From positions 134,751 through 198,750 of the forward strand of contig CAWCSP010000004.1 of NCBI GenBank assembly GCA_963798215.1: a stretch of 64,000 nucleotides of DNA. Direction: 5' to 3'. The position numbers were made by a program, and so were the translations under genes. The stretch comes from an uncultured Acidobacteriota bacterium. GTDB lineage: Bacteria > Acidobacteriota > Thermoanaerobaculia > UBA5066. Of the stretch, positions 18,414-39,153 are shown in pieces. Position 1 is the first letter of the stretch; each line of letters begins with the position of its first letter. The notes under the pieces were generated by a model, which was not told the origin of the DNA, did no database searches, and saw only the letters and a list, made by a program, of their open reading frames with translations.

Positions 18414-19949
18414 TCAGCGGCCGATCGCGGTCTCGCGGTCGAGGATCCGGAGCGTCTTGTCGTAGAGCGCCTCCACCTCCGCGCGGCTGTTCCCGATCGC
18501 GGTCATCCCGAGCTTGCCGTACTGCGAGAGCGCGCCGATGAGGTGGAAGAGGACGCCCGACTCCGAGTTGTGGCTGTAATGGAGCGCGTTGATCGTGACG
18601 ATCTCGATGAGGTCCTCGGGCAGCAGTCCCCGATACGCCTCCGACTGGAGGTTGTCGGTCGCCCGGTAGAACTTCGGCGACCCGCGCGGCGAGAGGAAAA
18701 GGCCGGTCTCCGGGTCGAGCCGCCCTCCGGTGAGGAACTGAAGGGCGAGATACGGGTGCGTCGTGCCCCCCATCCGGAGGTTGATCTCGAGGGCGGAGAG
18801 GCGCCACGGCTCGTCCGCGCGCTCCTTCACGGTGAGGAAGTCGACCCCGAACCGGCTCACGACGCCGCGCGAGGCGAGGACGGCGCCGATCTTCATCGCC
18901 GCCGCGGTGATCTCGCGGCGGTATTCGCCGGAGGCGGGGAAGAGGCAGCCGAGGAAGACCTGCCCGCTCGGCCCGCCGAGGACCTGGTCGTGCGTCGAGA
19001 TCGGGACGACGTCGCCGCGGGGATCCGTGCGGAGCTGGACGGACGGCGACGCCTTGATCGCGCCCTCGAGAAACTCCTCGGCGATGCCGCCCATGCGCCG
19101 GAACTTCGTGTGGAAGTCGTCCCAGGTTTCCCATCCCACCGAGAACTCGAGGCTCGGGAGCCGCTCCCGGACCTTGCTCGCGTCCGGCGGACCGTCCGGG
19201 TACCGGAAGATCGCGTTTCCCTCGCCCGAGAAGCTGTCGTTGAGCTTCACGACGGCCTTGCGGAGCGCGGGGTTCCGGCGCTTGAGGTCGACGAGGGCGG
19301 TCTCGAGGTCCGCGTCGTCCCGCAGGTCCTCGTGGCCTTCCGGGCAAGGGACGCCCGCCTCGCGGAAGACCTTCCGGCTTCCCGACTTCGTCCCGAGGCC
19401 GTTGAGTGCGGGGTCGACGCCGTTCAGCGGGATCCCGAGGAGGACGGCGAGCCTTCTCTCGAACGGGGTCGAGTTGAAGACCGTGAGGTAGGCGCGCGAG
19501 CGGTCGGGGATCCCCGCGCGGATGCGCTCGATGAGGCGCGGACGCTCGAGGATCTTCTCCGTGAGCGAGCGTGGCGAGGCGTCGTGCGCGCAGAGGAGCG
19601 TCAGGCGGCTGCGCGCATGGCTCGCGGGGATCCCGACGAGGAGCTGGAAGTAGTACTCGAGGACGAGGGGGTGGACGGGCTGCGACGTCACGAAGACGAC
19701 TCGCGACCGGGGATTGCGCAACCGGATCAGGAGGAACAGGAGGCGCTCCTCGTAGAAACTCGCCCCGTCCAGCTTCGTCAGCTCGGCCTGGTCCAGCGTC
19801 AGGGAGGGGACGACGACCGACGTGTGCGGATCCTCGTCGCGGCCCGCGATCGCGTCCCAGACCTCCAGGAGGCGCGGCTTGAGCTTCTCGAACTCTTCGA
19901 GCTCGCGTTCGAGGGAAAGGTCGGACGCGAACGGCGGCCTCGGGATCAC
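18414..19949 (-). CDS. ATP-grasp fold protein with large N-terminal pre-ATP-grasp domain (peptide/carboxylate-amine ligase-like)
   Basis: 511 aa. A KLNDSFSGEGNAIF motif resembles the ATP-grasp K-x-GS-G-G phosphate loop. A ...FGVDFLTVKE...SALEINLRMGG segment resembles the Mg/ATP-binding E-x-N region. The functional assignment is tentative. Confidence 0.45.
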   Translation of the reverse strand: MIPRPPFASDLSLERELEEFEKLKPRLLEVWDAIAGRDEDPHTSVVVPSLTLDQAELTKLDGASFYEERLLFLLIRLRNPRSRVVFVTSQPVHPLVLEYYFQLLVGIPASHARSRLTLLCAHDASPRSLTEKILERPRLIERIRAGIPDRSRAYLTVFNSTPFERRLAVLLGIPLNGVDPALNGLGTKSGSRKVFREAGVPCPEGHEDLRDDADLETALVDLKRRNPALRKAVVKLNDSFSGEGNAIFRYPDGPPDASKVRERLPSLEFSVGWETWDDFHTKFRRMGGIAEEFLEGAIKASPSVQLRTDPRGDVVPISTHDQVLGGPSGQVFLGCLFPASGEYRREITAAAMKIGAVLASRGVVSRFGVDFLTVKERADEPWRLSALEINLRMGGTTHPYLALQFLTGGRLDPETGLFLSPRGSPKFYRATDNLQSEAYRGLLPEDLIEIVTINALHYSHNSESGVLFHLIGALSQYGKLGMTAIGNSRAEVEALYDKTLRILDRETAIGR

Positions 19950-19983
19950 TGGCCGGAGATTCTAGGCTTCCGGTCCGAACCGA

Positions 19984-19997
19984 GGCACGGATCTTGT
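19984..19997 (+). promoter_or_regulatory. Candidate sigma-54 (-24/-12) promoter of pilin gene 1
   Basis: aGGCACGgatcTTGTt matches TGGCACG-N4-TTGC with correct spacing. It lies ~37 nt upstream of the TTG start. A PilR-like sigma-54 activator is encoded in the same cluster. Confidence 0.35.
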
Positions 19998-20033
19998 TTA
20001 CGATCGGGCGGGAAACCCGGGAAAGAGGCGCGA

Positions 20034-20531
20034 TTGAAGGCACGGCGGAACGGATCGCGGGGCTTCACGCTGATCGAGCTGCTGATCGTCGTCGCGATCA
20101 TCGGGATCATCGTCGCGATCTCCGTCGTGAACATGATCAACGCGATCCAGCGCGCCAAGCAGAAGCGCTCGATGGCCGACATCCGGAGCCTCTCGTCGGC
20201 GCTCGAGGCGTACGCGGCGGACATGAATACCTACCCGGCCGCGGCGGGGTACACGCTGCCGACGGGCCTCTCGCTCCCGACCGGCTCGTTCGGCGCGGCC
20301 GCAGGGCAGCTGAGCCCGACGTACATCCGCGTCGCGCCCCTCCAGGACGGCTGGAACTCCTGGTACCTCTACGGGACGAGCGCCACGCGGACGGATTACG
20401 CCGTGTGCTCGGCTGGCGCCGACGGCGCTCCGCAGTCGTCCCCGTCCTTCGGTCCGACGACCGATTTCAACGCGGACATCATCCTCGTGGACGGCGCGTT
20501 CGTGCAGTTCCCCGACGGGGCCCAGCGCTGA
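20034..20531 (+). CDS. pilA: Type IV pilin / prepilin-type N-terminal cleavage-methylation protein (PilA-like), paralog 1
   Basis: TTG start after an AAAGAGG RBS. Class III signal ...NGSRG|FTLIELLIVVAIIGIIVAI, with the conserved +5 Glu. 165 aa. Confidence 0.8.
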   Translation: MKARRNGSRGFTLIELLIVVAIIGIIVAISVVNMINAIQRAKQKRSMADIRSLSSALEAYAADMNTYPAAAGYTLPTGLSLPTGSFGAAAGQLSPTYIRVAPLQDGWNSWYLYGTSATRTDYAVCSAGADGAPQSSPSFGPTTDFNADIILVDGAFVQFPDGAQR

Positions 20532-20661
20532 CGAAGTCGGCCGGCAGGTGACAAACGGTGTTCGGTTCGGGCCGATCCCTCCGACAAAATTTAGTCGCAG
20601 GACAGCCTGCCGGGACCGTGGCCCACGTCAAGTCCTCGATACACAACAGGTTCGGCGGGTC

Positions 20662-20675
20662 GGCACGGCTCTTGA
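20662..20675 (+). promoter_or_regulatory. Candidate sigma-54 (-24/-12) promoter of pilin gene 2
   Basis: tcGGCACGgctcTTGAa has GG and GC-like elements at the correct 11-nt spacing, ~27 nt upstream of the ATG. Same architecture as the promoter of paralog 1. Confidence 0.35.
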
Positions 20676-20701
20676 AAGCACGCGAACGGAGGTTGATCCA
20701 A

Positions 20702-21205
20702 ATGAAGAGGAACCGAAAGGGTTTCACGCTCATCGAGCTGCTGATCGTCGTTGCGATCATCGGAATCATCGTCGCGATCGCCATTCCGAACCTGCTCAAC
20801 GCGATCCAGCGCGCCAAGCAGAAGAGGTCCATGGCCGACATGCGCTCGGCCGGTACGGCCGCCGAGGCGTATGCCGTCGACTTCAACCACTACCCTGCGG
20901 CGGCGGGCTACTCGCTTCCGTCGGGCCTGACCGTCCCCACGGGGACGTTTGGTGCCGTGGGTTCGGGCTTCAACAAGCAGGTTGCTCCCACGTACATCCG
21001 CCTCCTTCCGATCACGGACGGCTGGCAGTCGTACTTCCTGTACGGCAACAACGGCGCAGGCAACGCGACGGCCTACGTGATCATGTCGAACGGGAAAGAC
21101 GGCACCGCAGGCACGCTCGTCGGCGGCGAGACGACGAACTTCAACGACGACATCGTCTTCACGAACGGCCAGTTCGTTCAGTACCCCGCGGGCGCGCAGC
21201 GGTAA
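20702..21205 (+). CDS. pilA: Type IV pilin (PilA-like), paralog 2
   Basis: ATG after a GGAGG RBS. MKRNRKG|FTLIELLIVVAIIGIIVAIAIPNLLNAIQRAKQKRSMADMRS. The C-terminus (FVQYPAGAQR) parallels paralog 1 (FVQFPDGAQR). 167 aa. Confidence 0.8.
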   Translation: MKRNRKGFTLIELLIVVAIIGIIVAIAIPNLLNAIQRAKQKRSMADMRSAGTAAEAYAVDFNHYPAAAGYSLPSGLTVPTGTFGAVGSGFNKQVAPTYIRLLPITDGWQSYFLYGNNGAGNATAYVIMSNGKDGTAGTLVGGETTNFNDDIVFTNGQFVQYPAGAQR

Positions 21206-21225
21206 GTCCTCCCGCCTCTCGCCCG

Positions 21226-21259
21226 AAAGAGCCCCCGCGAGGGGGCTCTTTCTCTTTCT
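21226..21259 (+). terminator. Rho-independent terminator after the pilin genes
   Basis: AAGAGCCCCC-GCGA-GGGGGCTCTT GC-rich hairpin followed by TCTCTTTCT. Confidence 0.6.
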
Positions 21260-21292
21260 GGGGACCTTTTCCACGCGTCTAGAATCGCCACG

Positions 21293-23609
21293 GTGAAGCG
21301 CGGACTGGCGACCGGACGGACGGCGCTCCTCGGCGGCGCGCTCGGATTCGCTCTCGCGGCCGCCCTTCTCGGTCCCGGCGCGGCGGCCGGCCTCGTCCCG
21401 GCGCGCGGCGATCTCGCCGACTTCTTCTGGCCCATGAAGGCGTACACGGCCGCGCGCTGGGCGGCCGGCAGCCTCGCGCTCTGGAACCCTCTCTCGGGCT
21501 GCGGCGAGCCCTGGCTGGCGCAGCTCCAGACCGGCGTCCTCAACCCGGGCGATCTCCCGTTCCTCCTCCACGGCGCCGCGGGTCCTCTCGTCGCGATCGC
21601 CCTGCACGTCGCGATCGCGGCCGCCGGGATGGCGGCATGGCTCTCCTCCCTCGGCGTCTCGCGCGCGGGCGCCCTTGCGGGAGCGGCGACGTGGGCGGGC
21701 GGCGGCGCGTTTCTATCCCTCGTGCCGGTCTACAACAACTTCGCGACGGCCGCGTTCCTGCCCTGGCTCTTTCTCGGGGCGCGCCGGTCCGCCCGCGGGT
21801 CGCCGCCCGTTCTGTTCGCGCTCGCGGTCGCGCTCGCCTTCCTGGGCGGCGAGCCCGCCCTCGCGGCGGCCGGGTCCTGCGCCGCGGTGGCCGTCGCGCT
21901 CGCGACGCGCCGCGAGGAGCCGTCCGGCGCCGCGCCCCGGCCCGTGCGCGCGGCGCTCCGGGCGGCGGGCGGCCTCGCGCTCGGCCTCGGCCTCGCCGCT
22001 GCGGCGCTGGGGCCGTTCCTCGTCCTCGTGAGGTCGACGGGGCGCGTCTCCGGCGTGACGAGAGCGGAGGCCCTCGCGCGTCCCGTCGGCCGGGCGGACC
22101 TCGCCGACCTCGTGGTTCCGCCCGCGCCTCCCGACGAGCGGCGCCCCGCGCCGGGCCGCGGCGGATACCTCGTGACGCTCGCGCTCGGGCCCCTCCCCTT
22201 CGTCCTCGCCGCGGCGGCGGGCGCGGGGTTCGCCGCGCGCCCGCGCCTCCTCGCGTGCCTCGCCGTCCTCGCCGCGCTCGGCGTCGTCCTCGCGCTCGGC
22301 GCCCGGGGGGGGCTCGTGCCGCTCCTCTGGGACGGCGGGCTCGCGCGCGGCGTCCGCTTTCCGGCGCGCTGGTTCATCTTCGCGCACTTCGCGCTCGCCG
22401 CGGCCGCCGGCGCCGGATTCGACGGCTGGCGCGACGGGCATCTCTTCGGCTGGCCGAAGCGGGCCTCGCACGAGGCCGCGCCGCCGGCGAAGGGGCCGCT
22501 CCTCGTGTCCGCCGCTCTCGCCGCGGGCGCCCTCGGGTTTCTCGTTCTTCTCGCCGCGGCCGAGCACCGCACGCCCGGGGCCGGCGCGTGGGCGGCATTC
22601 GCCGCCGCGGCCGCGGGCTGCGGCCTCCTGTGGCGCGTCCGCGCGCGCCGAGACGCCCTCGCGACGGCACGGAGGTGCCCTCCTCGTCCTCTGTGTCGCG
22701 CTCCCGCTCCCGCTCGGCGCGCGCGACATCTTCGCCGGCGCGAGCGCGGCCGATCTCGCGCGCCCGCCGCGCGCCGTCGCGGATCTGGCGGGAGAATCCG
22801 CAGGCCGCGTCTTTCCGGTCGTGTCGGACGGAGCGCTCCTCGAGGCGTGGCTCCGGTCGGCCGGCGGGTCGTGGACGCCGGACACCGCGCTTCGCGCCCA
22901 CGAGTCGCTCTCGGGGTACGGGTCGCTTTCCGTCGGGCTCGCCTCGGCCGCCTCGCCGTCCCCCATCGGCAACCCCTGGCGCGCGCGCCTTCTGGGAGCG
23001 GCGCTCTCCGGCGGCGACGCGGGAGCGCTTCTCGGTCTTGCGAACGTTCGCCACATCGTGACGCCCTTCCCGACCTCGATGCCGGGCGCGCGGCTCGAAC
23101 TGCGGGCGGGGGAGGTTCTCCGCTACGGCCTCGAGCACCCGCTCGGGCGCGTGTTCTTCGCGCGGGAGACCGTCCTGCTCGGCGACGACGCGGCGTTCCG
23201 CTCTCTCTCGGAGCGCCCCTTCGACCCGGAGGAGCGCGCGCTCGTCGCGCCGGGAGGCGGCGAAGCGGGCGTGCTTCCGCCGCGCCGCGCGGCGAAGGGT
23301 TTCGCGGTCGCCCACGTGACGCGCGACGAGCCCGAGGCGTTCGAGGTCGGGACGGCGGCGTCCGAGCCGACGACGCTCGTCATGACGCGTTCGTGGGACT
23401 CCGGCTGGGAGGCGCGGCTCGACGGCGCGCGCGTCCCGCTCCGGCGCTGCGATCTCGCGCTGATGGCGGTCGCGATCCCCGCCGGCGAGCACCGGCTCGC
23501 GCTCGCGTACCGTCCTGTCGCGTTCCGCGCCGGCGCCGCCGTCTCCGGCGCGTCCCTCCTCGTCCTTCTCGCGCTCGTCCTCGCGGGCGGGAAGGAGACA
23601 CGCGCGTGA
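21293..23609 (+). pseudogene. YfhO-like GT-C fold membrane glycosyltransferase (candidate pilin glycosyltransferase, TfpO/TfpW-like position). Reading frame switches near 22640-22670.
   Basis: GTG start. N-terminal polytopic region in frame 2 (DFFWPMKAYTAARWAAGSLALWNPL, many TM helices). Around 22650 it continues in frame 0 (GGALLVLCVALPLPLG...) and ends with a YfhO-type C-terminal periplasmic motif (WDSGWEARLDGARVPLRRCDLALMAVAIPAGEHRLALAYRP). Total ~772 aa, typical for YfhO. Requires a single-nucleotide indel to read through. Confidence 0.55.
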
Positions 23610-24778
23610 CGTTTCCGGACGCGTTCCTCCTCGCGGTCTTCGCGGCCGTCGGCGCGATCACGGGCTCGTTCGCGAACGTCTGCATCCACCGGCTCCCGCG
23701 TGGCGAATCCGTCGTCCGCCCGCCGTCGCGCTGCCCTGCGTGCGGGACGGGCATCGCCTTCTACGACAACGTCCCGGTCCTCTCGTGGCTCGTCCTCAGG
23801 GGGCGCTGCCGCGCGTGCGGGGCGGCCATCTCGCCGCGCTACCCGCTCGTCGAGGCGGCGGGCGCCGGAATCTTCGCGGCCGCGGCGCTCCTGTGGGGCC
23901 CGACGCCGGTCGCCGCGGGCGGCGCGCTCCTCACGCTCGCGGGGCTGATTCTCGTCTTCACGGACCTCGAGACGCGGACGCTCCCGGACGAGGTCACGCT
24001 CGGGACCCTCGCCCTCGGCCTTCTCGTCGCCGCCGTGAGGGACCGTACGGGGGCGGAAGCGGGCGCGCCGTTCCTTGCCGCCCACGGCCACCTCGTCGAG
24101 GCCGCGCTCGGCGCCGCGGCGGGGGCGGCGTTCCTGGAGCTCGTCCGCCGCGCGTACGCGGCGCTCCGCGGGCAGGAGGGGATGGGCGGGGGCGACGTGA
24201 AGATGCTCGCGATGGCTGGGGCGTTCACCGGGCCCGCCGGCGTCTTCCTGACGCTCTTTTTTGCGTCCCTCGCCGGGACGCTGGTGGCGGGCGGTGCCTC
24301 TCTCGTGCGACGAGCGCGCTGGGCTGCCGCATTCTCTTTCGCGAAGGACGGGGAACGGGCGGGGACCCTCGCGGAGGCGCACGGCCTTCTCGTGCGCCCG
24401 GACGGCCGGGTGGGCGCTGCGGGCCGGAGGTGGCGCGAGGTGCCGGGCGCCTCCGCGCCCGGCGAGCCCGTCTCCGCCGACCGGCGCGCCGCGGGCCGCC
24501 TCCTCGCCTTCGTGCGCCTCGCCCGCCGCCGCGCGTCGGGCGGGGCGCCGAGCGCCTCCGGCCGGATCATCCTCGACGACGGCGCCGACTTCTTCCGCGT
24601 CCTCGCGGCGCGCGCGGCCGGGACGCCCGCGGGTCTCCTCGTCCTCCTCGCGCGCGCGGACGTGCCGTTCGGCGTCTTCCTCGCGGCGGGCGCCGTCCTC
24701 GCGTTCGTCTTCGGGCGTGTCGCTCTGGAGGCTCTCGTGGGCCCGGGTGCGGACCTTCTCTCGAGGCTCCTGCCGTGA
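23606..24778 (+). CDS. pilD: Prepilin peptidase / N-methyltransferase (A24 family, PilD) with ~100-aa C-terminal loop insertion
   Basis: GTGA overlap with the upstream gene. N-terminal tetracysteine motif CPACG...CRACG. Catalytic GGGDVKMLAMAGAFTG motif present. 390 aa. Confidence 0.85.
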   Translation: MTFPDAFLLAVFAAVGAITGSFANVCIHRLPRGESVVRPPSRCPACGTGIAFYDNVPVLSWLVLRGRCRACGAAISPRYPLVEAAGAGIFAAAALLWGPTPVAAGGALLTLAGLILVFTDLETRTLPDEVTLGTLALGLLVAAVRDRTGAEAGAPFLAAHGHLVEAALGAAAGAAFLELVRRAYAALRGQEGMGGGDVKMLAMAGAFTGPAGVFLTLFFASLAGTLVAGGASLVRRARWAAAFSFAKDGERAGTLAEAHGLLVRPDGRVGAAGRRWREVPGASAPGEPVSADRRAAGRLLAFVRLARRRASGGAPSASGRIILDDGADFFRVLAARAAGTPAGLLVLLARADVPFGVFLAAGAVLAFVFGRVALEALVGPGADLLSRLLP

Positions 24779-26550
24779 CGAGCCGCTCGTTCGAGCGGGA
24801 GGTCCGCAACGTGATCGTGGGCGGGCTCGTCACGCTCCTTTTCCTCGCCGGCACGGCGGCGGTCGTCCTCCGCAACACGACGGCGTGGGGCGTGGCCGAG
24901 ACCGAACGTCGTCTCGCGCGTGAGACGCGCACGGCGGCCGCCGCGTTCGCGGCGACCGCGAGCCCGGCCCGCACGCTCGCCGACGACGTCGGTCCCGGGC
25001 GGGTGCTCGGCGAGAACGGGGCGCGGAGCGCCGCGCTCTACGACGCCCACGGAGCGCGCGTCGCGGACGCACCGTACCTCCCCGGCGCGGGCGAGGCCCC
25101 GGCCCGGCTCGACGCCGCGGACCTCGCGGTGGACGCGGCGCTTCTGCGCGACGGGCCGGCCGGGCCCGTCGTCCTCGCGCCTCTCCCGGGGACGGGCCAG
25201 ATCCTGCGCGTCGCGTGGAACGACCCGGCCGTCGCGGCCGCGCGCCGGAACGCCCGGATCGTCCTCGTCGCGATCCCTGCCGCGGCCACCGTGCTCGTCG
25301 TCCTCGTCGTCCCGTTCCTGAGGCGGCTCATGGCCCCGATCGACGCGATCGCCCAGACGGCGCGCGGTGCCGGCGACCTCGTCCCCGAGGTCGTGGCCCG
25401 CTCCGCGCGCGACGAGGCCGAGGGCGCGGCCGAAACGTTCGCGCGGACCGTCGACACCCTCAAGAAACGCACGGAAGAGCTCGAGGAGCTTCGCAGGACC
25501 GAGCAGCGCCGGGCCGACGCCCTCGCCGTGACGGCCGAAACCCTCGTGCGCTCGCACCCGGGCGGCCTCCTCGTCGTGGACGCGGGGGGCCGTCTCGCCG
25601 AGGCGAATGCTCCCGCGCGCGCGGTCCTCGACCTCCGCCCGGAGGACGTGGGCCGGCCGGCCGCCGACGCGCTGGCTCACGTCCCGGCACTTGCGGCCGC
25701 CGCGGAGCGGGCGCGCGCCGGCGCGCCGACGCTCTCGACGGAGATCGCGGTCGGCGACGGCGCCGACGCACGCGTTTTCGAGCTCATCGGCGTCCCGATC
25801 CTCGACGCCTTGCAGAACGTGCTCGGCGGTGTCCTGTTCGTCGAGGACCGGACCGAGACGCACCGGCTCGAGCGCGAGGTGTCTTCCCGGCGCGAGCTCG
25901 CCGCGCTCGGCGAGATGTCCGCGGGAATCGCGCACGAGTTCCGCAACGCGACGGGGACGATCCTCGGCTGGGCGCGCCTCGCGGCGCGGACGGACGACGC
26001 CGGCGCGCGGGCAAGGCACCTCGCGGCGATCCAGGCCGAGGCCGAGCACGTCGCGCGCGTGACGGGGGACTTCCTCTTTTTCGCGAGGCCCGAGCGGCTC
26101 GAGACGGCCCCGTGCGACCTCGAGGCGCTCGCCCGGGAGATCGCCGCCGAGCAGAGGACACTCACGCCGGGCGTCGACGTGTCGGTCGGCGGGTCCTTCG
26201 AGGCCGCGCTCGCGGACGCGGCGCTCGTGAAGCGCGCGCTCGTGAACCTCGTCAAAAACGCGTGCGAGGCGGCCGCCGACCGCCCGGGCGGGGGCCGCGT
26301 CCTCCTTTCCGGGGAGGGGGCGGCGGCGGGAACCGTCCGCGTCGCCGTCGAGGACGACGGACCCGGCGTGTCGGACGAGGCCGCCGCCAAGCTCTTCGTC
26401 CCGTTCGCCACGACCAAGGAGGCGGGCACGGGCCTCGGGCTCGCGCTCGTCGCGAAGATCGCGGCGCTCCACCGCGGAAGCGTCTCGGCCGGAAGGTCCG
26501 CCGCGCTCGGCGGCGCCCGGTTCGTCCTCTCCCTGCCCGCCGCCGGCTGA
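24775..26550 (+). CDS. Sensor histidine kinase (2 TM, PAS, HisKA, HATPase_c; PilS-like)
   Basis: GTG start overlapping the pilD stop. HisKA H-box (LGEMSAGIAHEFRNATGTILGW). N-box (LVKNACEAA). G-boxes (EDDGPGV, GTGLGLALV). Confidence 0.75.
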   Translation: MTSRSFEREVRNVIVGGLVTLLFLAGTAAVVLRNTTAWGVAETERRLARETRTAAAAFAATASPARTLADDVGPGRVLGENGARSAALYDAHGARVADAPYLPGAGEAPARLDAADLAVDAALLRDGPAGPVVLAPLPGTGQILRVAWNDPAVAAARRNARIVLVAIPAAATVLVVLVVPFLRRLMAPIDAIAQTARGAGDLVPEVVARSARDEAEGAAETFARTVDTLKKRTEELEELRRTEQRRADALAVTAETLVRSHPGGLLVVDAGGRLAEANAPARAVLDLRPEDVGRPAADALAHVPALAAAAERARAGAPTLSTEIAVGDGADARVFELIGVPILDALQNVLGGVLFVEDRTETHRLEREVSSRRELAALGEMSAGIAHEFRNATGTILGWARLAARTDDAGARARHLAAIQAEAEHVARVTGDFLFFARPERLETAPCDLEALAREIAAEQRTLTPGVDVSVGGSFEAALADAALVKRALVNLVKNACEAAADRPGGGRVLLSGEGAAAGTVRVAVEDDGPGVSDEAAAKLFVPFATTKEAGTGLGLALVAKIAALHRGSVSAGRSAALGGARFVLSLPAAG

Positions 26551-26554
26551 GAGC

Positions 26555-27679
26555 TCAGCCCGGCGCGGGCGCCCCGGACGACGGGCGGGCGGCGGTCTTC
26601 GCCCGCTTCTCGACGAGTCCCTTGAACTGGTCCTTGTCGAGCGACTTCTCGTAGGCCTCGTCGGGCTCGACGATGCCGGCGACGACGAGGTCCGCGAGGC
26701 TCTGGTCCATCCCGATCATCCCGGACGTGCGGCCGGTCTGGATGAGCGTCCCGATCATCGCGGTCTTGCCCTCGCGGATGTTGTTCGAGAGCGCGGACGA
26801 CCCGCGGAGCACCTCGAACGCCGCGACGCGCCCGCCGCCCTTCTTCTTGAGGAGGACCTGCGCGACGACGCCCTTGAGGACCTCGGCGAGCACCGTCCGC
26901 ACCTGCTCCTGCTCCTCGGCGGGAAAGCTGTCGATCAGCCGGTCGACGGCCTTCGCGGCGGAATTCGTGTGCAGCGTCCCGAAGACGAGAAGCCCCGTCT
27001 CGGCGGCCTGGAGGGCCATGGACATCGTCTCGAGATCTCGCAGCTCGCCGACGAGGACGACGTCCGGGTCCTCGCGGAGCGCGGCCTTCAGGGCGCCCGC
27101 GAACGTCGGGGTGTCGAACCCGAGCTCGCGATGCGAGATGAGGGACTTGTTCGGTCGGTGGAGGAACTCGACCGGGTCCTCGATCGTGACGATGTGGGAG
27201 GCGCGCGTGCGGTTGATCCAGTCGAGGAGCGCCGCGAGCGTCGTCGACTTGCCCGAGCCCGTCGGCCCGGTCACGAGGACGAGGCCGCGCGGGATCCGCG
27301 CGACGTTCGCGACGAGCGGCGGGAGGCCGAGCTCCTCGATCGCGAGGACGCGCGGCGGGATCATGCGGAGGACGGCTCCGGAGCCGTGCTCCTGGCGGAA
27401 CAGGTTCACGCGGAAGCGCGCGATCTCGCCCATCGCGTACGCGAAGTCCGTGTCGCCCGTATTGCGCCACTCGCGGAGCGGCTTCTCCGGCGCGATCGGG
27501 ACGATCAGGCTCTCGTACTCCTCCTCGGTCAGCGTCCGCCACTTGAGGCGTTCGAGGTCGCCGTCCACGCGCACCATGGGCGGCGAGCCGACGGCGAGGT
27601 GCAGGTCCGACGCCTTCTTGTCGACCATGATCCTGAGGAGCTTGTCGACGCGGTTGACGCCGGCGTGGAGCGAGCTCAT
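26555..27679 (-). CDS. pilT: Type IV pilus twitching-motility retraction ATPase PilT
   Basis: 374 aa. Walker A (GPTGSGKST), Asp box (ITIEDPVEF), Walker B (LVGELRD), His box (GTLHTNSAAKAVDRL), and the AIRNLIRE-like motif (ALSNNIREGK). Confidence 0.9.
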   Translation of the reverse strand: MSSLHAGVNRVDKLLRIMVDKKASDLHLAVGSPPMVRVDGDLERLKWRTLTEEEYESLIVPIAPEKPLREWRNTGDTDFAYAMGEIARFRVNLFRQEHGSGAVLRMIPPRVLAIEELGLPPLVANVARIPRGLVLVTGPTGSGKSTTLAALLDWINRTRASHIVTIEDPVEFLHRPNKSLISHRELGFDTPTFAGALKAALREDPDVVLVGELRDLETMSMALQAAETGLLVFGTLHTNSAAKAVDRLIDSFPAEEQEQVRTVLAEVLKGVVAQVLLKKKGGGRVAAFEVLRGSSALSNNIREGKTAMIGTLIQTGRTSGMIGMDQSLADLVVAGIVEPDEAYEKSLDKDQFKGLVEKRAKTAARPSSGAPAPG

Positions 27680-30419: not shown

Positions 30420-31211
30420 ATGGCGATGAGCGTCCGAAGGACCTGTTTCCGGCGTGCACACGGACCGTCCGCGCGGGCGGCGGGACGCGGCTTCTCGCTC
30501 GTCGAGCTCCTCGTCGTCATCGCGATCCTCGGGATCCTCGCGATCGTCGGCGGCCGGTCGATCCTCAGGGCGTGGCAGCGCCAGGAGCTCTCGAGCGCGG
30601 CGATGGACGTCAAGGTCCTCTTCCAGCGAGCGCTTCCCGAGATGCAGCGCCGCGGCATCACGACCTTCGTCCAGGTCGGCCCGCTCGTGAACAACGCCTC
30701 CGTCCGCTACATCCCGATCTACCTGATCGGAGACGCGAACGGGGACGGCCAGGTCACGGCCGGCTTCGCGAACCCGGCGCCGGTTGGCGGCGACCTCCTG
30801 ATCGACGAGTACGACGTCATCGTGCTCGGCAAGACCGGCGTGAAGGGCGTGACGGGCGCGTCCCAGAACTTCTGCCTCTCCGTCGACGACATCACGCAGG
30901 TCCAGTCCAGCCGCTGGCTGACGGCCTCCGTCGCCTGCTCCTCGCCCCTGGTTCCACCGTTCTGCGACTCGAACGACTGGACGGTTGGGCGGGCGCTCCA
31001 GTGCGACTTCCAGGGGCGCGCGATCGACACCGGCACCGGCCTCCAGCTCGCCGGGCCGGCGGAGCTCGTCCTGACGCACGTGGGCGTCGTGAGCGGGGCC
31101 TTCCAGCCGCCGACGCGGTACGTCCTCAGCATCAACCCGGTCTGGAGCGTCAGGATCCAGAAACAGGTCAAGGACGTCTCGAACACCTGGGTGGACCAGC
31201 TCGGTGGGTGA
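30420..31211 (+). CDS. Minor pilin / pseudopilin (FimT/GspH-like), prepilin-type N-terminal domain
   Basis: ...AAGRG|FSLVELLVVIAILGILAIVG class III signal with Glu+5. 263 aa. Confidence 0.7.
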   Translation: MAMSVRRTCFRRAHGPSARAAGRGFSLVELLVVIAILGILAIVGGRSILRAWQRQELSSAAMDVKVLFQRALPEMQRRGITTFVQVGPLVNNASVRYIPIYLIGDANGDGQVTAGFANPAPVGGDLLIDEYDVIVLGKTGVKGVTGASQNFCLSVDDITQVQSSRWLTASVACSSPLVPPFCDSNDWTVGRALQCDFQGRAIDTGTGLQLAGPAELVLTHVGVVSGAFQPPTRYVLSINPVWSVRIQKQVKDVSNTWVDQLGG

Positions 31212-31215
31212 CACG

Positions 31216-31764
31216 ATGAGACGGCGCACGCGCGGCTCGAGCTTCGTCGAGGTCCTCCTCGCGATGACGATCATGGCGCTCGTCCTCGTCGGGATCCTCC
31301 AGATGTTCTCGGTGTCCCTCGTGATCAACAAGGGATCGGCCGCGCGCACGCAGATGCTCTTCAAGTGCCAGCAGGTCGTCGAGAACATCCGGTACTTCTA
31401 CTTCCTGCAGCGCAGCAGCATTCCGACGCCGGCGATCCTGACGGACACCGGCCACCTGGCGTCCGGCCCGATGGCGGTCCCCGGCACGCTTCCGGTCCCG
31501 CTGAAATGGGACGTGGACCAGACTTTCCTGCCGTACGTGGCCACGGACGCGACCTGGGCCTACTGGGGACCGACGGGGGCCAACGTCGTCGAGCAGGAGA
31601 ACGCCCCGTACAAGCTCTCGTACACGATGCAGCAGGACCTCGTCCAGAACGTCTGGGTGGTCACGGTCTCCGCGATCCCGACGGACGTCGCGACGGCGAC
31701 GCGCTACTTCGGCATCGGCCTCCAGAGCGGCAAGAGGGTGGACTATGTGGCGCAGTTCCAGTAG
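31216..31764 (+). CDS. Minor pilin (PilV/GspI-like)
   Basis: MRRRTRGSS|FVEVLLAMTIMALVLVGILQMF prepilin-like N-terminus. Start placed at the ATG just after the upstream stop. Confidence 0.6.
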   Translation: MRRRTRGSSFVEVLLAMTIMALVLVGILQMFSVSLVINKGSAARTQMLFKCQQVVENIRYFYFLQRSSIPTPAILTDTGHLASGPMAVPGTLPVPLKWDVDQTFLPYVATDATWAYWGPTGANVVEQENAPYKLSYTMQQDLVQNVWVVTVSAIPTDVATATRYFGIGLQSGKRVDYVAQFQ

Positions 31765-33055
31765 GCGCCGCGCGCGCCCGCGGGGATTCACGCTCCTCGA
31801 GGCGATGGTGTCGCTGCTGCTCCTCGTGATCGTCCTGACCGTCGCGATGTCGATGCTCTTCCAGATGCGCGCCTTCGCCGAGCGGCAGCAGTTCTACATG
31901 CTCCCGCGCCAGACGGCGCGCCGGGCCACGGACTACCTCTCGTACTACATCGCCTCGGCGACGGACCTGAACGAGTGGACGACCCCGCGCACGAGCCCGA
32001 ACGCGCTCGTCATGTACTACAACGTCGGCGCGCCCGGCGTCCCGGTCCAGGCCTCGTACGACAACCTCGACGGGACCGAGGCGGGCAACGCCGTCACGGT
32101 GCCGAACGTCTCGACGAAGTTCGGAGACCTCGGGACGGACGTCATCACGCTGTTCGCGCCGACGAACCCGGCGAAGTACCTCGCGGCGCCGACGTTCGGG
32201 GGCCTCGGCTCGAACATCGACTTCTATTTCAATTTCCGCCAGGGCTGCGCGACGAACGACACCGATAACCTCGCCGCGTTCAAGACGGCGACGGGCTTCG
32301 ACGGCACGCAGAGCGCGCTCCTCATGCTCTCGGACATCAAGGGGGACTGGATCTACTTCCAGATCCCGGCCTCGGGCTACAAGGCGGACGGCCTCTGCTC
32401 GGACGTGACGACGTACAAGAACATCCACGTGGTCGCCGACACGCAGTCGGCCGCGCTCCCGGCGCCGCCGAACGGAACGACCGGCCTCGTCGATCCGGTC
32501 TCCCTCGTCACGGGCGTCCAGGTCATCTCGTTCCGCGTCCTGACGGATCCCACGGACAACGTCCCGAAGCTCCAGCAGAAGCTGGGCCTCTTCGACCCCG
32601 CCACGGACAACCCGGGGACCGCCTTCGTCAACGTGATGGAGAACGTCGAGGACCTGCAGATCACATACGTGTACGCCCTCGAGCCCGTCCTGGGCGCCGG
32701 GACGTTCTGGAACACCGCGACCAACGACCTCCGCACGACCGGCGCGGCGACGGGCGTGCCGCCGCAGGCCGGGCCCACGGCCGCGCCCGGCGGGACGGAC
32801 ATCACGAACGTGATCGGGATCCGCTTCTCGGTCACCGCCCGCTCGCCGCGGCTCGGCCTCGGGGCCCAGGGCCTGACGGACGTGCGCAGCACGGAAAACC
32901 TCGCGACGACGACGAGCCAGCACTTCCGGCCGGCCTCGGAGAACCACCCGGTCTCGATGAACCCGATCTCCCCGGCGCAGCCGGCGTACGACCTCTTCGA
33001 CCACTACCGCGCGACGGCCATGCTCATGCTGCGCAACCGGACGCTGGGGAGCTGA
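31745..33055 (+). CDS. pilW: Type IV pilus assembly protein PilW-like minor pilin
   Basis: ...[32 protein letters not shown]. 436 aa, a size typical for PilW. Overlaps the upstream gene. Confidence 0.7.
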
Positions 33056-33057
33056 CG

Positions 33058-33723
33058 ATGAACGAACGCGGCAGCGCCCTCGTCTCGGTCATCCTCGTCC
33101 TCCTCGTCCTCACGATCGTGGGCGTCGGGATCGCGTACTTCACGTCGATGGAGGACCGCCTCTCGGGCAACACCCGCATCGCGAAGGCGGCCTTCTACGC
33201 CGCGGACGCGGGCCTCCGCCGGGCCGAGCTCGCCCTGAGCGACACGGCGGGGCTCAAGAGCGCGTGCACGCCGATCACGCTCACGCAGATTCTCAGCACG
33301 GGCGCGACCCCGACGCTGAGCGTGCCGGGCGGCGGCAACCCCGCGATCCCGCTCGACCTCACGGGAGCGGCGTTCACGCAGGCGGACTGTCTTCCGGCCA
33401 CGGACCAGATCAACTACCTCGGCATTCCGGTCCCGGTGGTCGCCGCGACGCCGGTCGTCGACCGTGCGACGTACTCGATCTACGTGCGGAACAACATCGA
33501 CGACGCGTCCGGCTCGGCGACGCTCGACAGCGACAGCATGATCAACATCGTGTCGGTCGGAACGATCCAGCTCGTGGCCGGCACCTCGGTCACGCGCATC
33601 CTCGAGGAGCAGCTGCTCCTGTCGCCGGGCGGCTCGTTCGGCGGCACGCAGAAGGGCCTCGAGGCGGGGGGCACCAACGCCGTGCAGAGCGGACAGAGGG
33701 GCCTGAACGCGGGGAACCCATGA
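33058..33723 (+). CDS. pilX: PilX-like minor pilin (PilX N-terminal domain)
   Basis: [38 protein letters not shown] matches the PilX_N consensus (MxxxRGxALVxxLLxLxVLTxxG). Confidence 0.7.
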
Positions 33724-36700
33724 CGACGAAGCGGCTTCCCTTCCGCATTCCCGGGTGGCTCCGGCGCGCCTGCGCCGTCTTCCTGCTCGGCGTGATGGCC
33801 TTCGGCGGCGCCGGGTCCGCGCGGGCGGCCGCGACCGAAGGGTACGACCCTCTCCGGCAGATCACGGCCCAGGTCCTCCGCGCGAACCTCCTGATCCTGC
33901 AGGACCTCAGCGGGTCGATGAAGTGGGATCTCTACCAGGACCAGCTTCTCGAGGCAGAAGACTCGACCGGCCGCCTCGTCTGGATGAGCACGTGCGTCGG
34001 GCCCAACCCGGGGCCGACGCCGACGCCGACGGCGACGCCGACGCCGACGGTGACCCCGACGGTGACGCCGACGGCCACGAACACGGCGACGGCCACGCCG
34101 ACGGCCACGAGCACGTTCACGGTGACGCCGACGGCCACGACCACGAACACGCCGACCCAGACGTACACGGTGACGCCGACCACGACGCCGACGCCCACGG
34201 ACACGGCCACGGTGACGCCGACGGCGACGCCGACGGCGACGTTCACGGCCACGCCGACCGTCACGAACACGCCGACGAATACGCCGACGACGACGGCGAC
34301 CCCCACGCCCACGGACACGAAGACGATCACGCCGACGCCGACGCCGACGGTCACGCCGACGGTCACGCCGACGGTCACGATCACGCCGACGGTGACGAAC
34401 ACGCCGACGGTCACGAAGACCTTCACGCCGACGATCACGCCGACGATCACGCCCACGCCGACGGTCACGCCCACGGTCACGATCACGCCGACGAAGACGC
34501 CGACGGTCACGCCGACGAAGACGCCGACGGTGACGAAGACGCCGACGAAGACGCCCACGCGGACGCCCACGATCCCGCCGACGAGCACCTACACGGCCAC
34601 GGTGACGCCGACGGCGACGAAGACGCCGACGATCACGCCGACGGTGACGCCGACGAGTGACGCCGACGATCACGCCGACGGCGACGATCACGCCGACGAT
34701 CACGCCGACGGCGACGCCGACGATCACGCCGACGCGGACGCCGACGTCGACGAACACGCCGACGGTCACGCCGACGTTCACGCCGACGATCACGCCGACG
34801 AGGACGCCGACGGTGACGCCCACGGTGACGCCGACGATCACGCCGACGCCGACGATCACGCCGACGGCGACGCCGACGCCGACGAAGACGTTCACGCCGA
34901 CGATCACGCCGACGGCGACGGTGACGCCGACGGTGACGCCGACGGCGACGAGGACGTTCACGCCGACGTTCACGGCGACGAAGACGTTCACGCCGACGAC
35001 GACTCCGACGATCACGCCGACGATCACGAACACGGCGACGCCTTCCCCGACGGTGACGCCGACGGCCACGAAGACGTCGACGCCGACCGTGCCGTCGCCG
35101 ACGCCGACGGCGACCGTGACACCTACCAAGACGCCCACCGCAACCGTGACGCCGACGGAGAAGGTCGATCTGGAGCTGCCGCGGAACCCGCTCGTCAGGC
35201 CCGGCGGAGCGCTCGAGGAGCGCTGGGCATCCGCCCAGCCGCTCGCGACGCCGGCGCCGAAGTGGGGCCTCCCGCAGCCGGTCGCCGTCGTCGCGATGGG
35301 CGGCGGGGCGGCCGCCCAGTTCGGCATCGCCGCGCTGCTCGTGCAGGCGACGCCGACGCCGACGCCGTGGCCGACGGACCCGTCGACCGGCCTTCCGGAC
35401 GCGGGCTGCCACCAGTGGCGCTACACGCTCCACTGGGACCGCCCGTCGCGCCTCGCGACGCTCAAGAACGCCCTCGGCAACTCCGTGACGATCTACAAGA
35501 ACTTCACGGCGCCGGGCGGCGGAGCGCAGGCCGACTGGCCGGACCCGATCGTGCACAGCATCGACTGGACCGGGGCGCCGAACGCCGGGCGCGTGGAACT
35601 ACGCGTCGCCGCCCGCGGCCGCGGGAACGACGTTCGCCTACGACCACGACTGCGACGACCCGGTCAAGGGCCCGGCATGCGGTTCGCTCCCGCAGGTGGG
35701 CCCCGACGAGAAGCCCGGCATCTGGTACGAGGCCGGCTACGTCGCGCGCGTCCTCGTCGGTGGCCCCTCGTGGGACTACCCGAACCACTACGGTTCCCCT
35801 GGGCCGCCCCGGATCTCCGCGGCCACGGACCCGCAGGGCGTCGTCGTCGACTGGCAGTGGACGCTGAACTACGGCTACGGCCCGAACAACGAGGTCATCT
35901 ACGGCCTCGACCCCGGACCGCCCCTGCCTGTCTACGACATGACGACCGACGTGGGCGGCGCGTTTACGGGCTTCGACGGCGGGTCGATCCCCGGAATCAC
36001 GGGCACGCCGCTCGACTTCCCGAGCACATGGTTGACGTTGGGCGGGCTCGCGATCGGCGATCCGCCGGCCACCGGTCCCGGCACCGGCGGCGCCAACCAG
36101 CCCACGTGGAGTACATCCCTGCCGGCGGACGTCGTCGGGATCACGCGGAACCAGGTCAACTGGGGCCTCATGACGTTCCAGGACAAGTCCGCGCTCCCGA
36201 ACCCGCTGGCCTGCACGGACGACGTCTCGAACTACGACGTCAAGGTGCCGATCGTGTCGGACGACTCGGGCGACGTCTCCGCGATCGAGGACTACCTGCG
36301 CCTGAAGTACCAGTCTGGCGGCCCGCATCCGGGCCTGTCCGCGAGCGGCGGCACGCCCACGAAGCGCGCGATCAAGCTCGCGGGCGACAGCATCACGACC
36401 TCGTGGAACGCCGACCCGAAGAAACAGTGCCTCCGGCCGTGGGGCATCATCCTCTGCACGGACGGGCAGTCGAACACGTGCAACACGGGCAGCCCGTCGG
36501 CCGACGACGTATGGGGAGCGAACGGAAACCCGGCCTGCGAGGCCGACATCGCCGGGAGCGACTATCTGAACTACCCGCCGGGGGCCGCGGAGGCCGTCTA
36601 CAACCTGAGGCTGCAGTTCGGCGCGGGTGACATCATCAAGCCGCGCACGTACGCGATCGGGATCGCGCCCGAGGTCGGCCGCTGCGAGCTGGACCGCATC

Positions 36701-39153
36701 GCGTATCGCGGGCGTTCGGACGCGCGTGCCCCCCGGGGCGACGCGGGCTTCCTCCTCTACGACCCCAATGTCCCCCCCACCACGTGCGCCCTCGTGGGTG
36801 ACGCGGACCTGCCGCACATCGACCCGCCCACGCTCGACGAGAGCGCCGCGACGCCGGACCGGTTGCGACAGGACAACGGCGGTGCGGGCCCGTACGACTC
36901 CACCAAGCCCGACTACGCCTTCTTCGCCCTCGACACGACTTCGATCGTGAACGCGTTCCTGCAGATCGTGGCCGCGACCGCCGCCGGCGACTACTCGACG
37001 AGCGCGCCCGTCTCGGGCGGAGGCGTCTCGCTGGGCTCGATCGTCCTCCTGCCGTCCACGGAGTACCCGAGCTGGAAGGGCCACCTCCGGGCCTACGACA
37101 CGTCGAGCGGGACGAACGTCCTCAAGTGGGACGCCGCGGACGTCCTCAACAACCCGACACAGCCCTGGCAGCCCACGCCGGACAAGCGCGCCATCTACAC
37201 GTGGGACCCCGCGACCGGGACGCTGATCCCGGTGACCGCGGCAAACCTCGCGTCCCTGGTGGGGCTGGCCGGAGGGGACCCCGCGTTCACGGCGAACGTC
37301 GTGGACTTCATCCGCGGCTTCGACGGGACGCTCACGAACACGCCGCGCTTCAAGGCGGGGACGAACGCGTGCGACTCGACCGGATGGCTGCTCGGCCCCG
37401 TCGTCAACTCGACGCCGGCCGTCGTCGGCGGGCCGTACCAGTACAAGCAGTTCGGAAACGTCGCCGACCACCGGCCGTTCGAGGCCGTGTACGCGGCGCG
37501 CCGGCCGCTCGCGTGGGCAGGCTCGGACGACGGGCTGCTTCACGCCTTCGACTTCAACGACGGGACCGAGGTGATCGCGCTCCTGCCGCCGAACCTGCTC
37601 GCGAACGAGATCAAGCTCTACGCGAACTACGTCGCCGGGATCCCGATGAACGAGTACGTCACCGGCCAGGTGAGCCCGCTGGACCAGCACATCTGGGGCG
37701 TCGCGAACTCCCTCCGCTTCACGGACGTCTACTCTTCCGGGTTGGCCAGATGGTACCGCGGCCGGCTACAAGACGGTCGGGCTTCCTGACGGAAGGGCCC
37801 GGCGGCGACCTCATCGCCGCGATCGACGTCACGCACGTCTTCCCGGGGTACCCCACGGCGACGCCCCCGGTCCCCAACGACCCGAACTACGACTCGTCGA
37901 ACCCGGTCACGATCCTCTGGACGAAGAACTCCTCCGACTACACCGGCCTCTTCGGAAGCTGGAGCGTCCCGGCGGTCGCGGCCGACAACTTCTCGACGAA
38001 CCGGATGTTCTTCGGCGCGGGCATCAACCCGGCCAGCCTCCTGACGGCCTCCGTGGACGCGACCGCGTTCGTCGTCGACCCGACGGACGGGACCCTCAAC
38101 CACGCCGTCACGCTCACGAAGGTCGCGTCGCCCTCACCGCTCGTGGGCCAGCAGTCGTTCGCGGACGGCGTGTTCTTCCAGACCAAGGCGCCCGGCTACC
38201 TCCCGGACAACATCGCGGACCTCAGCCTCACGGCGGACCTCAACGGCCAGATCTGGTTCAACTGGAAGAACGGGGGGGCCGACTTCTCCGGAGCGCTGAG
38301 CTCGGCGGTCGGCATCGACCTCAACTCCGCGTCCGGCACGGTGAACGTCTTCACCACGGACTCGAACGGCATCACGACGGTGACGTCCGGCGCCGCCGGG
38401 CCGGCGTCTCCGCAGCCCGACTATTACTCTCCCGCGGCGACGGGTCAGGGGACGTCGGGCTGCCAGATCTACGCGATGGCGAGCGGAAGCCTCTACGAGA
38501 CGAGCCCGACCGTGTCGGGCTGGAACGTGAACCGCAGCGGCTCTCCGCCGTCCCCCTACGACTCCTCGCTGCCGGTATTCACGCCGTACCTCTACGTCGG
38601 CGTCGGCCCGAACAAGATCGGGGACCTCGCGTTCGGAGCGGCCCCGCTCGGCAAGGACCCGAACCAGCAGTACATCCTGAAACAGCGCATCGGCGGGGAG
38701 GTCCCGGACGCGATTCCGCTCCCGCCGGGCGATCCGGCGCTGGCGACCGGCCAGACGAAGCTCGGGCCGCGCACGCAGGTCACGTCCTCTCCGATCATGG
38801 TCGTGGACAGCACGGGCACGGGAGCGGAGAACGCGATCTTCCTGCTGTACGACCCGGACACGGGCTGCAACGGGACGTCGTACGTCGTGATCCTCACCTT
38901 CCAGTCCGGCACGGCGTGCACCGCGCCCACGATCGGGCCCGCGTCCGGCTCGCCCAACACGACGGGAATCGTGGTCCTGGGCGCCGGCCCCGGCGCCGCC
39001 AGCGGCATCACGTTCACGAACACGGGTCTCGTCGCCGCGCAGAGCGGCGTCGGTCCGACCGCGAGCGCGAGCCTCGTGTCCATCGGCATCGACATCAAGG
39101 CGCTCGCCGGGGTGCCGACCTTCCAGCCGGTCTGGTGGAGGGACGTGAAGTAA
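33720..39153 (+). pseudogene. pilY1: PilY1-like type IV pilus tip adhesin with ~385-aa Thr-Pro tandem-repeat linker. Coding sequence is split over four frame segments (about 3 frameshifts).
   Basis: ATG at 33720 (TGATG overlap with pilX), signal peptide. A TPTx repeat runs in frame 0 to ~34653 and continues in frame 1 from 34657, with an extra A in ACGCCGACG[A]GTGACG. Around 35585 it switches to frame 2 (...[12 protein letters not shown]...). This segment carries a vWA-like ILCTDGQSN motif and the PilY1 beta-propeller signature AGSDDGLLHAFDFNDGTEV. Around 37760 it switches to frame 1 (...GPGGDLIAAIDVTHVFPGYP..., the PilY1 C-terminus), ending at 39153. Confidence 0.7.
34005..35158 (+). repeat. 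Codon-periodic tandem repeat (ACG CCG ACG NNN)n encoding a (T-P-T-x)n linker inside pilY1
   Basis: ~1.15 kb of imperfect 12-nt units ([16 protein letters not shown]...). The same DNA read out of frame gives the D/H/A-rich pseudo-ORF. Confidence 0.8.

Follow-up and report, generated by a model that had tools for sequence, protein, structure and literature searches.

The YfhO-like gene and its product

The stretch of DNA analysed here, 64 kb of contig CAWCSP010000004.1 from an uncultured Acidobacteriota bacterium (hereafter the window; G+C content approximately 75%), carries at positions 21293-23609 of the forward strand a gene for a polytopic membrane protein of the YfhO type. The gene lies between a pair of pilin genes and the prepilin peptidase gene pilD, and its reading frame switches once along its length. 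This gene is real and conserved, and we consider it a reasonable candidate for a pilus-protein glycosyltransferase of a family that has not previously been tied to pili. The frameshift, which is the feature that made the locus look unusual, is most likely a sequencing artefact. We place the probability of this explanation as a whole, i.e. a YfhO-like glycosyltransferase of the pilus operon together with a frame switch that is a long-read consensus error, at roughly 0.6.

The gene starts with GTG at 21293 in the frame in which the position modulo 3 equals 2 (frame 2) and stops with TGA at 23607-23609 in the frame in which it equals 0 (frame 0). The switch was located by a GC3-periodicity profile and a seven-state Viterbi frame scan. 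The coding signal (GC3 periodicity and a sensible protein) followed frame 2 up to about 22643-22676 and frame 0 thereafter; the scan put the switch itself at about 22676, and the outgoing frame is not closed by a stop. Past the shift, frame 2 yields Arg-rich out-of-frame text, whereas the translation of frame 0 is 98% identical to the intact ortholog, and for this reason the frame switch cannot be attributed to chance.

Alignments with close relatives reduced the lesion to a single nucleotide. The intact ortholog in locus L001, which is 99.1% identical over the gene, is 2316 nt long as compared with 2317 nt in the window; apart from 20 substitutions, the two differ in a single additional base of the window, which the alignment puts at 22643. 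When the window was aligned with L002 and seven further relatives, the extra base was placed at 22646 (CGCGCG[C]GCC), the window allele being the L002-type CGCGTCCGCGCG-GCC plus one extra base. All nine close relatives are equal in length at the lesion, where the encoded loop varies in sequence only, and among these 10 close sequences the extra base was found in the window alone. Its removal results in an open reading frame (ORF) of 771 amino acids (aa) without any further lesion. Thus, the switch from frame 2 to frame 0, the +1 indel and the size of about 772 aa that had been proposed in the original prediction were confirmed by the coding signal and by the alignments, as was the overlap with the pilD start, which consists of the GTGA at 23606-23609. 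The possibility that two separate genes occupy 21293-23609 was ruled out, since a sensible start is lacking for frame 0 at the junction and the homologs are all single proteins. Frame 2 stays open through the out-of-frame text and runs into pilD, which is read in the same frame, so that the literal ORF spans 21293-24778 and would specify a chimera of 1161 aa; gene callers may report it as a fusion protein of the GT-C module and PilD.

Features of the window in and around the pilus operon, in order of position
Feature	Coordinates	Strand	Evidence or remarks
Pilin gene 1, 165 aa	20034..20531	+	Pfam N_methyl and T2SSG on the identical L001 gene; upstream of the YfhO-like gene in most loci
Pilin gene 2, ~168 aa, prepilin motif GFTLIELLIVV	20699..21205	+	NCBIfam GspG / PilA / IV_pilin_GFxxxE
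Terminator-like hairpin	21225..21252	+	12-bp stem with 8 G-C pairs, followed by TCTTTCT; separates pilin 2 from the YfhO-like gene
YfhO-like GT-C gene, 5' part	21293..22642	+	Frame pos%3=2; putative transmembrane glycosyltransferase module including invariant D40 (first periplasmic loop)
Extra-base site CGCGCG[C]GCC	22643..22646	+	DNA alignments with L001 and 9 relatives
YfhO-like GT-C gene, 3' part	22644..23609	+	Frame pos%3=0; last helices, beta-rich periplasmic domain and final transmembrane helix (predicted)
pilD prepilin peptidase, 390 aa	23606..24778	+	Pfam A24_N_bact and Peptidase_A24
PAS / HisKA / HATPase sensor kinase	24775..26550	+	Overlaps the pilD stop by GTGA 24775-24778
PilT-type retraction ATPase (T2SSE)	26555..27679	-	
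T2SSE pilus ATPase, 840 aa, N-terminal extension of ~450 aa	27676..30198	-	Candidate assembly ATPase
Four minor-pilin-like genes (N_methyl, PilX_N)	30426..33723	+	Pfam on the same genes in L001 and L059
PilY1-like adhesin gene	33720..39153	+	Thr/Pro-rich region of ~600 aa; some homologs carry PF05567 Neisseria_PilC

The predicted YfhO-type C-terminal domain of a polytopic protein was supported by a Pfam match and a structural model. When the conceptually repaired protein was searched against Pfam, as had been suggested along with the original prediction, YfhO (PF09586) scored above its gathering cut-off, and O-antigen ligase (Wzy_C) gave no match. The repaired protein and its closest relative (P0001, 771 aa, 98% identical) reached 33-33.5 bits against a cut-off of 28.5, the match in the repaired protein being limited to a C-terminal segment of 62 residues (690-751; profile positions 774-835 of 835). 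With the repaired protein as query, 218 relatives were found. The best 120 of these are 653-860 aa long (almost all 740-860), and PF09586 is precomputed on 119 of the 120; in the 30 aligned family members it exceeded the gathering cut-off without exception (best E 4.2e-16). The NCBIfam models of PgfM1 and PgfM2 gave weak C-terminal matches to the repaired protein.

The AlphaFold model, built with 30 homologs, had a pLDDT of 85.5 and a pTM of 0.90. It contains approximately 13 transmembrane helices, with helices in residues 2-480, a beta-rich domain at 482-740 and a last helix at 742-764. It thereby reproduces both the GT-C transmembrane fold and the YfhO architecture of about 13 helices, the final two of which are separated by a large extracytoplasmic domain; this architecture has been described for Bacillus subtilis YfhO, in which the large domain precedes the last helix (PMC5836110). 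In a Foldseek search of the PDB the strong matches were all GT-C enzymes: the arabinosyltransferase AftD (6w98) ranked first (E 3.9e-8, probability 1.0) and was followed by EmbB/C (E about 1e-2), PglB, ArnT, AftA, STT3 and Pmt4. The mycobacterial AftD and EmbA-C enzymes are thus the best structural matches, but at 12-15% identity and with TM-scores of 0.24-0.43 over much larger proteins the kinship is at the level of the fold only. When a sequence profile of the family was compared with all PDB chains, no match emerged.

The conserved residues of the family are in accordance with such a fold. In the alignment of 30 sequences D40 is invariant and D43 is kept in at least 90%; they belong to the motif GDLADFFWP directly after the first transmembrane helix and correspond to the acidic residues (DXD, DXXD or similar, with hydrophobic residues behind them) that GT-C enzymes have in the first extracytoplasmic loop. 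D40 is also retained in the 28%-identical protein of locus L114 (RDIPVFHLP). Further invariant residues in the alignment are E72-P73-W74, E187-P188 and R355/P357/A358/R359/W360. Sequence and model thus support the assignment of the protein as a predicted YfhO-like GT-C glycosyltransferase, and we infer that it is catalytic.

The characterised members of the YfhO family (B. subtilis YfhO and the streptococcal PgtC2, PgfM1 and PgfM2) resemble the window protein in Pfam family, helix layout and GT-C fold. They differ from it in several respects. The transmembrane module of the window protein is too diverged for the Pfam model to match, the host is a Gram-negative-type Acidobacteriota bacterium and not a member of the Firmicutes, and the genomic context is a type IV pilus operon.

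Position in the pilus operon and candidate function

The conservation of the locus was evaluated by scanning one genome per species, which gave 56 loci, nearly all labelled as Thermoanaerobaculia, Holophagales or Acidobacteriota metagenome-assembled genomes (MAGs); two of the contigs belonged to a single MAG with the label Acidithiobacillales. Wherever the flank was sufficient, the gene order in these 56 loci was the same, i.e. an ATP-grasp gene on the minus strand, two pilin genes, the YfhO-like gene, PilD and the histidine kinase (HisK) on the plus strand, and the PilT and PilB-like genes on the minus strand. PilD was located directly 3' of the YfhO-like gene in all genome loci with flank, down to 46% identity. 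In the reverse test, in which a PilD profile was run against metagenomes, a YfhO-like gene stood in front of all PilD relatives of at least 50% identity that had upstream flank, whereas most PilD-HisK pairs at 39-50% identity were without it. This implies that the YfhO-like gene is an accessory and not a part of the core machinery. Two more distant loci keep the YfhO-like gene beside PilD, and in L114 the order of pilin, YfhO-like gene, PilD and PAS-HisK is found at 28% identity; the YfhO-like protein of this locus was matched by Pfam YfhO with 30.9 bits and by hhalign with a probability of 99.6% (E 1.5e-24). This deep and tight adjacency is our main argument for a pilus-related function. The prospect, raised with the original prediction, that orthologous loci might reveal a gene unrelated to pili did not materialise, as the position is kept in the 56 genome loci and also in distant metagenome loci. 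The metagenome locus L065 holds a further YfhO-like gene, a diverged paralog with 27-37% identity (9158-11365, minus strand), which is found just downstream of the pilD-kinase pair and on the opposite strand.

The site had also been likened to that occupied by tfpO and tfpW in Pseudomonas. The likeness holds for the position directly after the pilin genes, but not for kinship with TfpW or TfpO, since the protein has no TPR match, no Wzy_C match and another architecture. TfpO/PilO of P. aeruginosa group I modifies pilin and is encoded right after pilA; TfpO and the neisserial PglL act in the periplasm with lipid-linked glycans. Both are enzymes of the Wzy_C, or O-antigen-ligase, type, and TfpO targets a C-terminal Ser. 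An identity of this type was ruled out: there was no Wzy_C match at E up to 1, and the pilins end in ...GAQR. The C-terminal Ser/Thr of the pilins, to which attention had been drawn as potential acceptors, is accordingly absent. In the ortholog alignment the pilins end in ...PDGAQR or ...PAGAQR, and pilin 2 terminates in ...YPAGAQR in the alignment of its 16 orthologs.

TfpW, the pilin D-arabinofuranosyl transferase of P. aeruginosa group IV, is likewise a GT-C-type membrane enzyme whose gene immediately follows that of the pilin, pilA (bioRxiv 10.1101/2020.04.19.049825). It has 646 aa, with 11 transmembrane helices, a core that resembles ArnT and a periplasmic TPR domain at the C-terminus, and genes for the biosynthesis of D-arabinofuranose (D-Araf) are linked to it. 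The window protein, in contrast, has about 13 helices, a beta-rich domain and a terminal transmembrane helix. A TfpW-type identity was ruled out because of this beta-rich periplasmic domain followed by a helix and the absence of a match to the TPR family; what the two share is the position and the fold class. DprE1/DprE2-like genes were not seen in the window.

We regard the YfhO-like gene as an accessory member of the type IV pilus operon, translationally coupled, via the GTGA overlaps, to pilD and the sensor kinase gene. By analogy with its characterised relatives, the enzyme would use as donor a polyprenyl-phosphate-sugar that is made elsewhere in the genome. We propose that on the periplasmic side of the inner membrane the sugar would be passed on to Ser/Thr of pilus proteins before their assembly. 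The acceptors might be the pilins, which the N-terminal helix is expected to anchor in the membrane until they are assembled and for which TfpW provides the precedent, and/or the PilY1-like adhesin, whose gene lies 10 kb downstream and whose long stalk is rich in Thr/Pro. PgtC2 and PgfM1 of the YfhO family O-glycosylate extracytoplasmic Ser/Thr-rich regions of proteins via undecaprenyl-phosphate-linked sugars (bioRxiv 10.1101/2024.05.05.592596), which parallels the action proposed here on pilus proteins; the Thr/Pro-rich region of the PilY1-like homologs is a region of this kind. Given the family, the fold and the conserved gene order, a role in the glycosylation of pilus proteins appears plausible.

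More tentatively, and with slightly less than even odds, the YfhO-like protein, whose gene is conserved in the pilin-pilD operon of Thermoanaerobaculia-like Acidobacteriota and of deeper lineages, could form an independent class of glycosyltransferases dedicated to pili, the third one next to the TfpO/PglL enzymes of the Wzy_C type and TfpW of the ArnT/TPR type. It would O-glycosylate the pilins and/or the mucin-like Thr/Pro stalk, about 500 residues long, of the PilY1-like tip adhesin. In the literature searched, a pilus operon with a YfhO-type gene is not described; there were incidental co-mentions only, and the same applied to GT-C enzymes in connection with pilin glycosylation. If the gene product does act on pilus proteins in this way, a YfhO-type enzyme joins the short list of pilin-linked glycosyltransferases, and protein O-glycosylation by the YfhO family extends from Firmicutes to an uncultured soil phylum. 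It would also provide a testable entry point to the way in which Acidobacteria construct and mask pili, the mucin-like PilY1 stalk included.

The frame switch and rival explanations

The extra base in the YfhO-like gene is accompanied by at least four further frame breaks in the window, all of them in the PilY1-like gene (34656, 35584, 37739-40 and 37782), and homologs, including P0121 and P0122 of a sister contig, read straight through these sites. This sister contig (ENA ERZ25039489 contig_34464, which holds loci L001 and L059) is 99.68% identical to the window over the 22.3 kb around P0001 in L001. Over 38 kb, in which the identity is 99.4-99.7%, we counted nine indel events between the window and the sister, all of them 1-2 nt long, none in-frame and none shared. 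Five of the nine break a gene in the window only. The other four do so in the sister only, affecting pilin 2 (21058-59), the 840-aa PilB-like ATPase gene (28759-65), the PilY1-like gene (35659) and a TPR gene (44784; all in window coordinates). The ratio of nonsynonymous to synonymous polymorphism (pN/pS) of the YfhO-like gene relative to the sister was 0.33-0.34, and downstream of the shift there were 3 nonsynonymous and 7 synonymous differences. Substitutions accumulating at a pN/pS of 0.34 indicate purifying selection between the window and the sister.

The occurrence of such breaks differed with the type of assembly. Frameshift-like junctions in the same gene cluster were found in 8 of the 16 loci on Flye-style 'contig_N' contigs (15 of which are from MFD Nanopore-only MAGs) as compared with none of the 36 short-read loci, and in L046, L048 and L053 the YfhO-like gene itself is interrupted, at sites other than that of the window. 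The MFD genomes were assembled from Nanopore reads only and polished once with Medaka (PMC12313526). The 262-aa fragment on record for the window lies on a single contig of 3.67 Mb, which is the scale of a long-read assembly. Among the three readings of the frameshift offered in the original prediction, i.e. an assembly indel, a phase-variable switch and a pseudogene, the evidence favours the first. Since the breaks are reciprocal and unshared with the sister, pN/pS is low and the short-read loci are unbroken, we find it quite probable, on what is a circumstantial case, that the frame switch is not a property of the organism but arose as an error in the consensus of a long-read (Nanopore-type) metagenome assembly.

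The observations that weigh against our explanation concern both of its parts, the origin of the frame switch and the function of the protein. If the frameshift is real, it would be a very recent loss-of-function allele, perhaps arising from the turnover or decay of surface-exposed pilus genes, e.g. under phage pressure. The deposited assembly contains the shift, and the gene caller used for it reported the 262-aa fragment; the extra base lies outside any homopolymer, the classic context of long-read errors. All five frameshifts of the window are confined to the YfhO-like and PilY1-like genes, which are both pilus-related, and none was found in approximately 45 kb of other genes. These two genes also show the highest divergence from the sister strain, with pS raised to 0.016 and 0.029, respectively, as compared with 0.003-0.008 in the flanks, and single-nucleotide polymorphisms (SNPs) bunch round the indel (8 of the 21 differences in the gene fall within 22635-22673). 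Moreover, the Nanopore-only origin of the window assembly is deduced from the scale of the contig and from its relatives. It is therefore conceivable that pilus genes are truly decaying or are being turned over at the strain level. However, this requires that the frame was lost independently five times in the window and, at four other sites, in a nearly identical sister, with no in-frame indel at all, and the pN/pS of 0.33-0.34 is not close to 1. No secondary lesions were seen downstream of the shift, and the same cluster is free of frameshifts in each of the short-read assemblies, whereas half of the Nanopore-only ones are broken at scattered positions. The literal product would be a chimera of GT-C module, junk and PilD, which would also compromise the expression of PilD. 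A pseudogene is thus unlikely in our estimation. A regulated switch, either a phase-variable ON/OFF tract or a programmed +1 frameshift or transcriptional slippage, is far less probable still. Surface glycosylation genes are phase-variable in some pathogens, and the lesion site lies within an alternating (CG)4 run; however, such runs are common (51 in the window, 6 of them in the YfhO-like gene), the length change is +1 nt and not a whole repeat unit, and Tandem Repeats Finder reported no array at the site. Phase variation was rejected because there is no long simple-sequence tract. Programmed frameshifting was rejected because the full-length homologs are all single ORFs and the shift is not conserved: it is needed by none of the nine close relatives and by none of the 218 homologs, and no conserved recoding signal is present.

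As regards the function, it might be argued that the GT-C enzyme is genuine while its substrate is not a pilus protein (e.g., lipopolysaccharide, exopolysaccharide or other envelope proteins), its place in the operon reflecting co-regulation or history. The characterised YfhO proteins of Bacillus and Listeria modify teichoic acids and not proteins (PMC5836110), and only the 62 C-terminal residues of the window protein match the Pfam YfhO model. Furthermore, in Bacillus and Streptococcus the YfhO protein has a cytoplasmic GT2 partner (CsbB, GtrB or PgfS) for the C55-P-sugar donor in the same operon, whereas in the 64 kb of the window Pfam searches of the predicted genes revealed neither a GT2 polyprenyl-phosphate glycosyltransferase nor a flippase of the GtrA type nor any sugar-nucleotide genes. 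No GT2 or GtrA-like gene was detected by Pfam in the annotated loci L001, L058 and L059 either; donor genes may lie elsewhere in the genome. The operon thus comes without linked donor genes, and also without acceptor signatures, the alignment of the pilins containing conserved Thr-containing loops (LPTG-T, TTxFN) but no diagnostic signature. The terminator-like hairpin stands between the pilin genes and the YfhO-like gene, and L065 carries its second YfhO-like paralog nearby. In addition, synteny does not identify the acceptor, and no pilus of this group is known to carry a glycan. On the other hand, a start/stop overlap with pilD as tight as this and an order of pilin, YfhO and PilD that is kept across lineages to 26-28% identity are difficult to account for unless the genes share a function, and the streptococcal enzymes of the YfhO family are established protein O-glycosyltransferases. 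We regard a substrate outside the pilus as rather improbable, and prefer the YfhO-like glycosyltransferase of pilus proteins together with the long-read consensus error.

This reading of the frame switch has a practical consequence. In this region, Nanopore-only metagenome genomes with a G+C content of about 75% show one single-base frame break per 8-10 kb, and such breaks should not be taken as pseudogenes or phase switches without read support. We also noticed that SNPs cluster next to each of the indels that separate the window and the sister. Together with the raised pS, which in the two genes is several-fold above the 0.003 of flanking housekeeping genes, these clusters could possibly reflect recombination, diversifying turnover of surface pilus genes or mixed-strain consensus effects.

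Neighbouring genes

Pilin 2 is intact in the window, and a 2-nt deletion frameshifts it in the sister assembly L001. Around 21040-21080 of the window the pilin has a strain-specific variable loop (...NNGAGNATAY...) with an N-x-T sequon that is not present in the closest relatives, L002 and L003, and the 2-nt deletion of the sister contig falls inside this loop. With regard to the hairpin downstream of pilin 2, a scan of 19900-21500 gave two such sites as compared with 1.3 expected by chance, so that this candidate terminator rests on the strength of its stem only.

In PilD the match to Peptidase_A24 stops at around residue 228; between this point and the last helices lies an additional, conserved segment of approximately 110-160 aa. 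The extra segment is missing from PilD relatives that have no upstream YfhO-like gene; the PilD of L114 (265 aa) is also without it. The identical-length cluster members of the 840-aa ATPase are labelled 'PilT/PilU family type 4a pilus ATPase' by NCBI. A PilC platform gene and PilMNOPQ genes were not seen among the window genes scanned.

The PilY1-like gene starts with a vWA-like part (DxSxS). Its intact homologs are 1200-1900 aa long; in the full-length ones the Thr/Pro-rich region comprises 450-550 aa, and the PF05567 matches of some homologs fall in the C-terminal part. Another gene with a prepilin motif follows the PilY1-like gene.

Upstream of the operon, an ATP-grasp / PGM1_C-type ligase gene (18414-19949, minus strand) is divergent from pilin 1. 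It occupies the same position in most related loci at 74-94% identity, which suggests that the ligase is another conserved partner of the pilus operon. On the other side of the operon, the window contains a gene for SelA, selenocysteine synthase (42740-44110, minus strand), and given this gene the organism probably uses selenoproteins.

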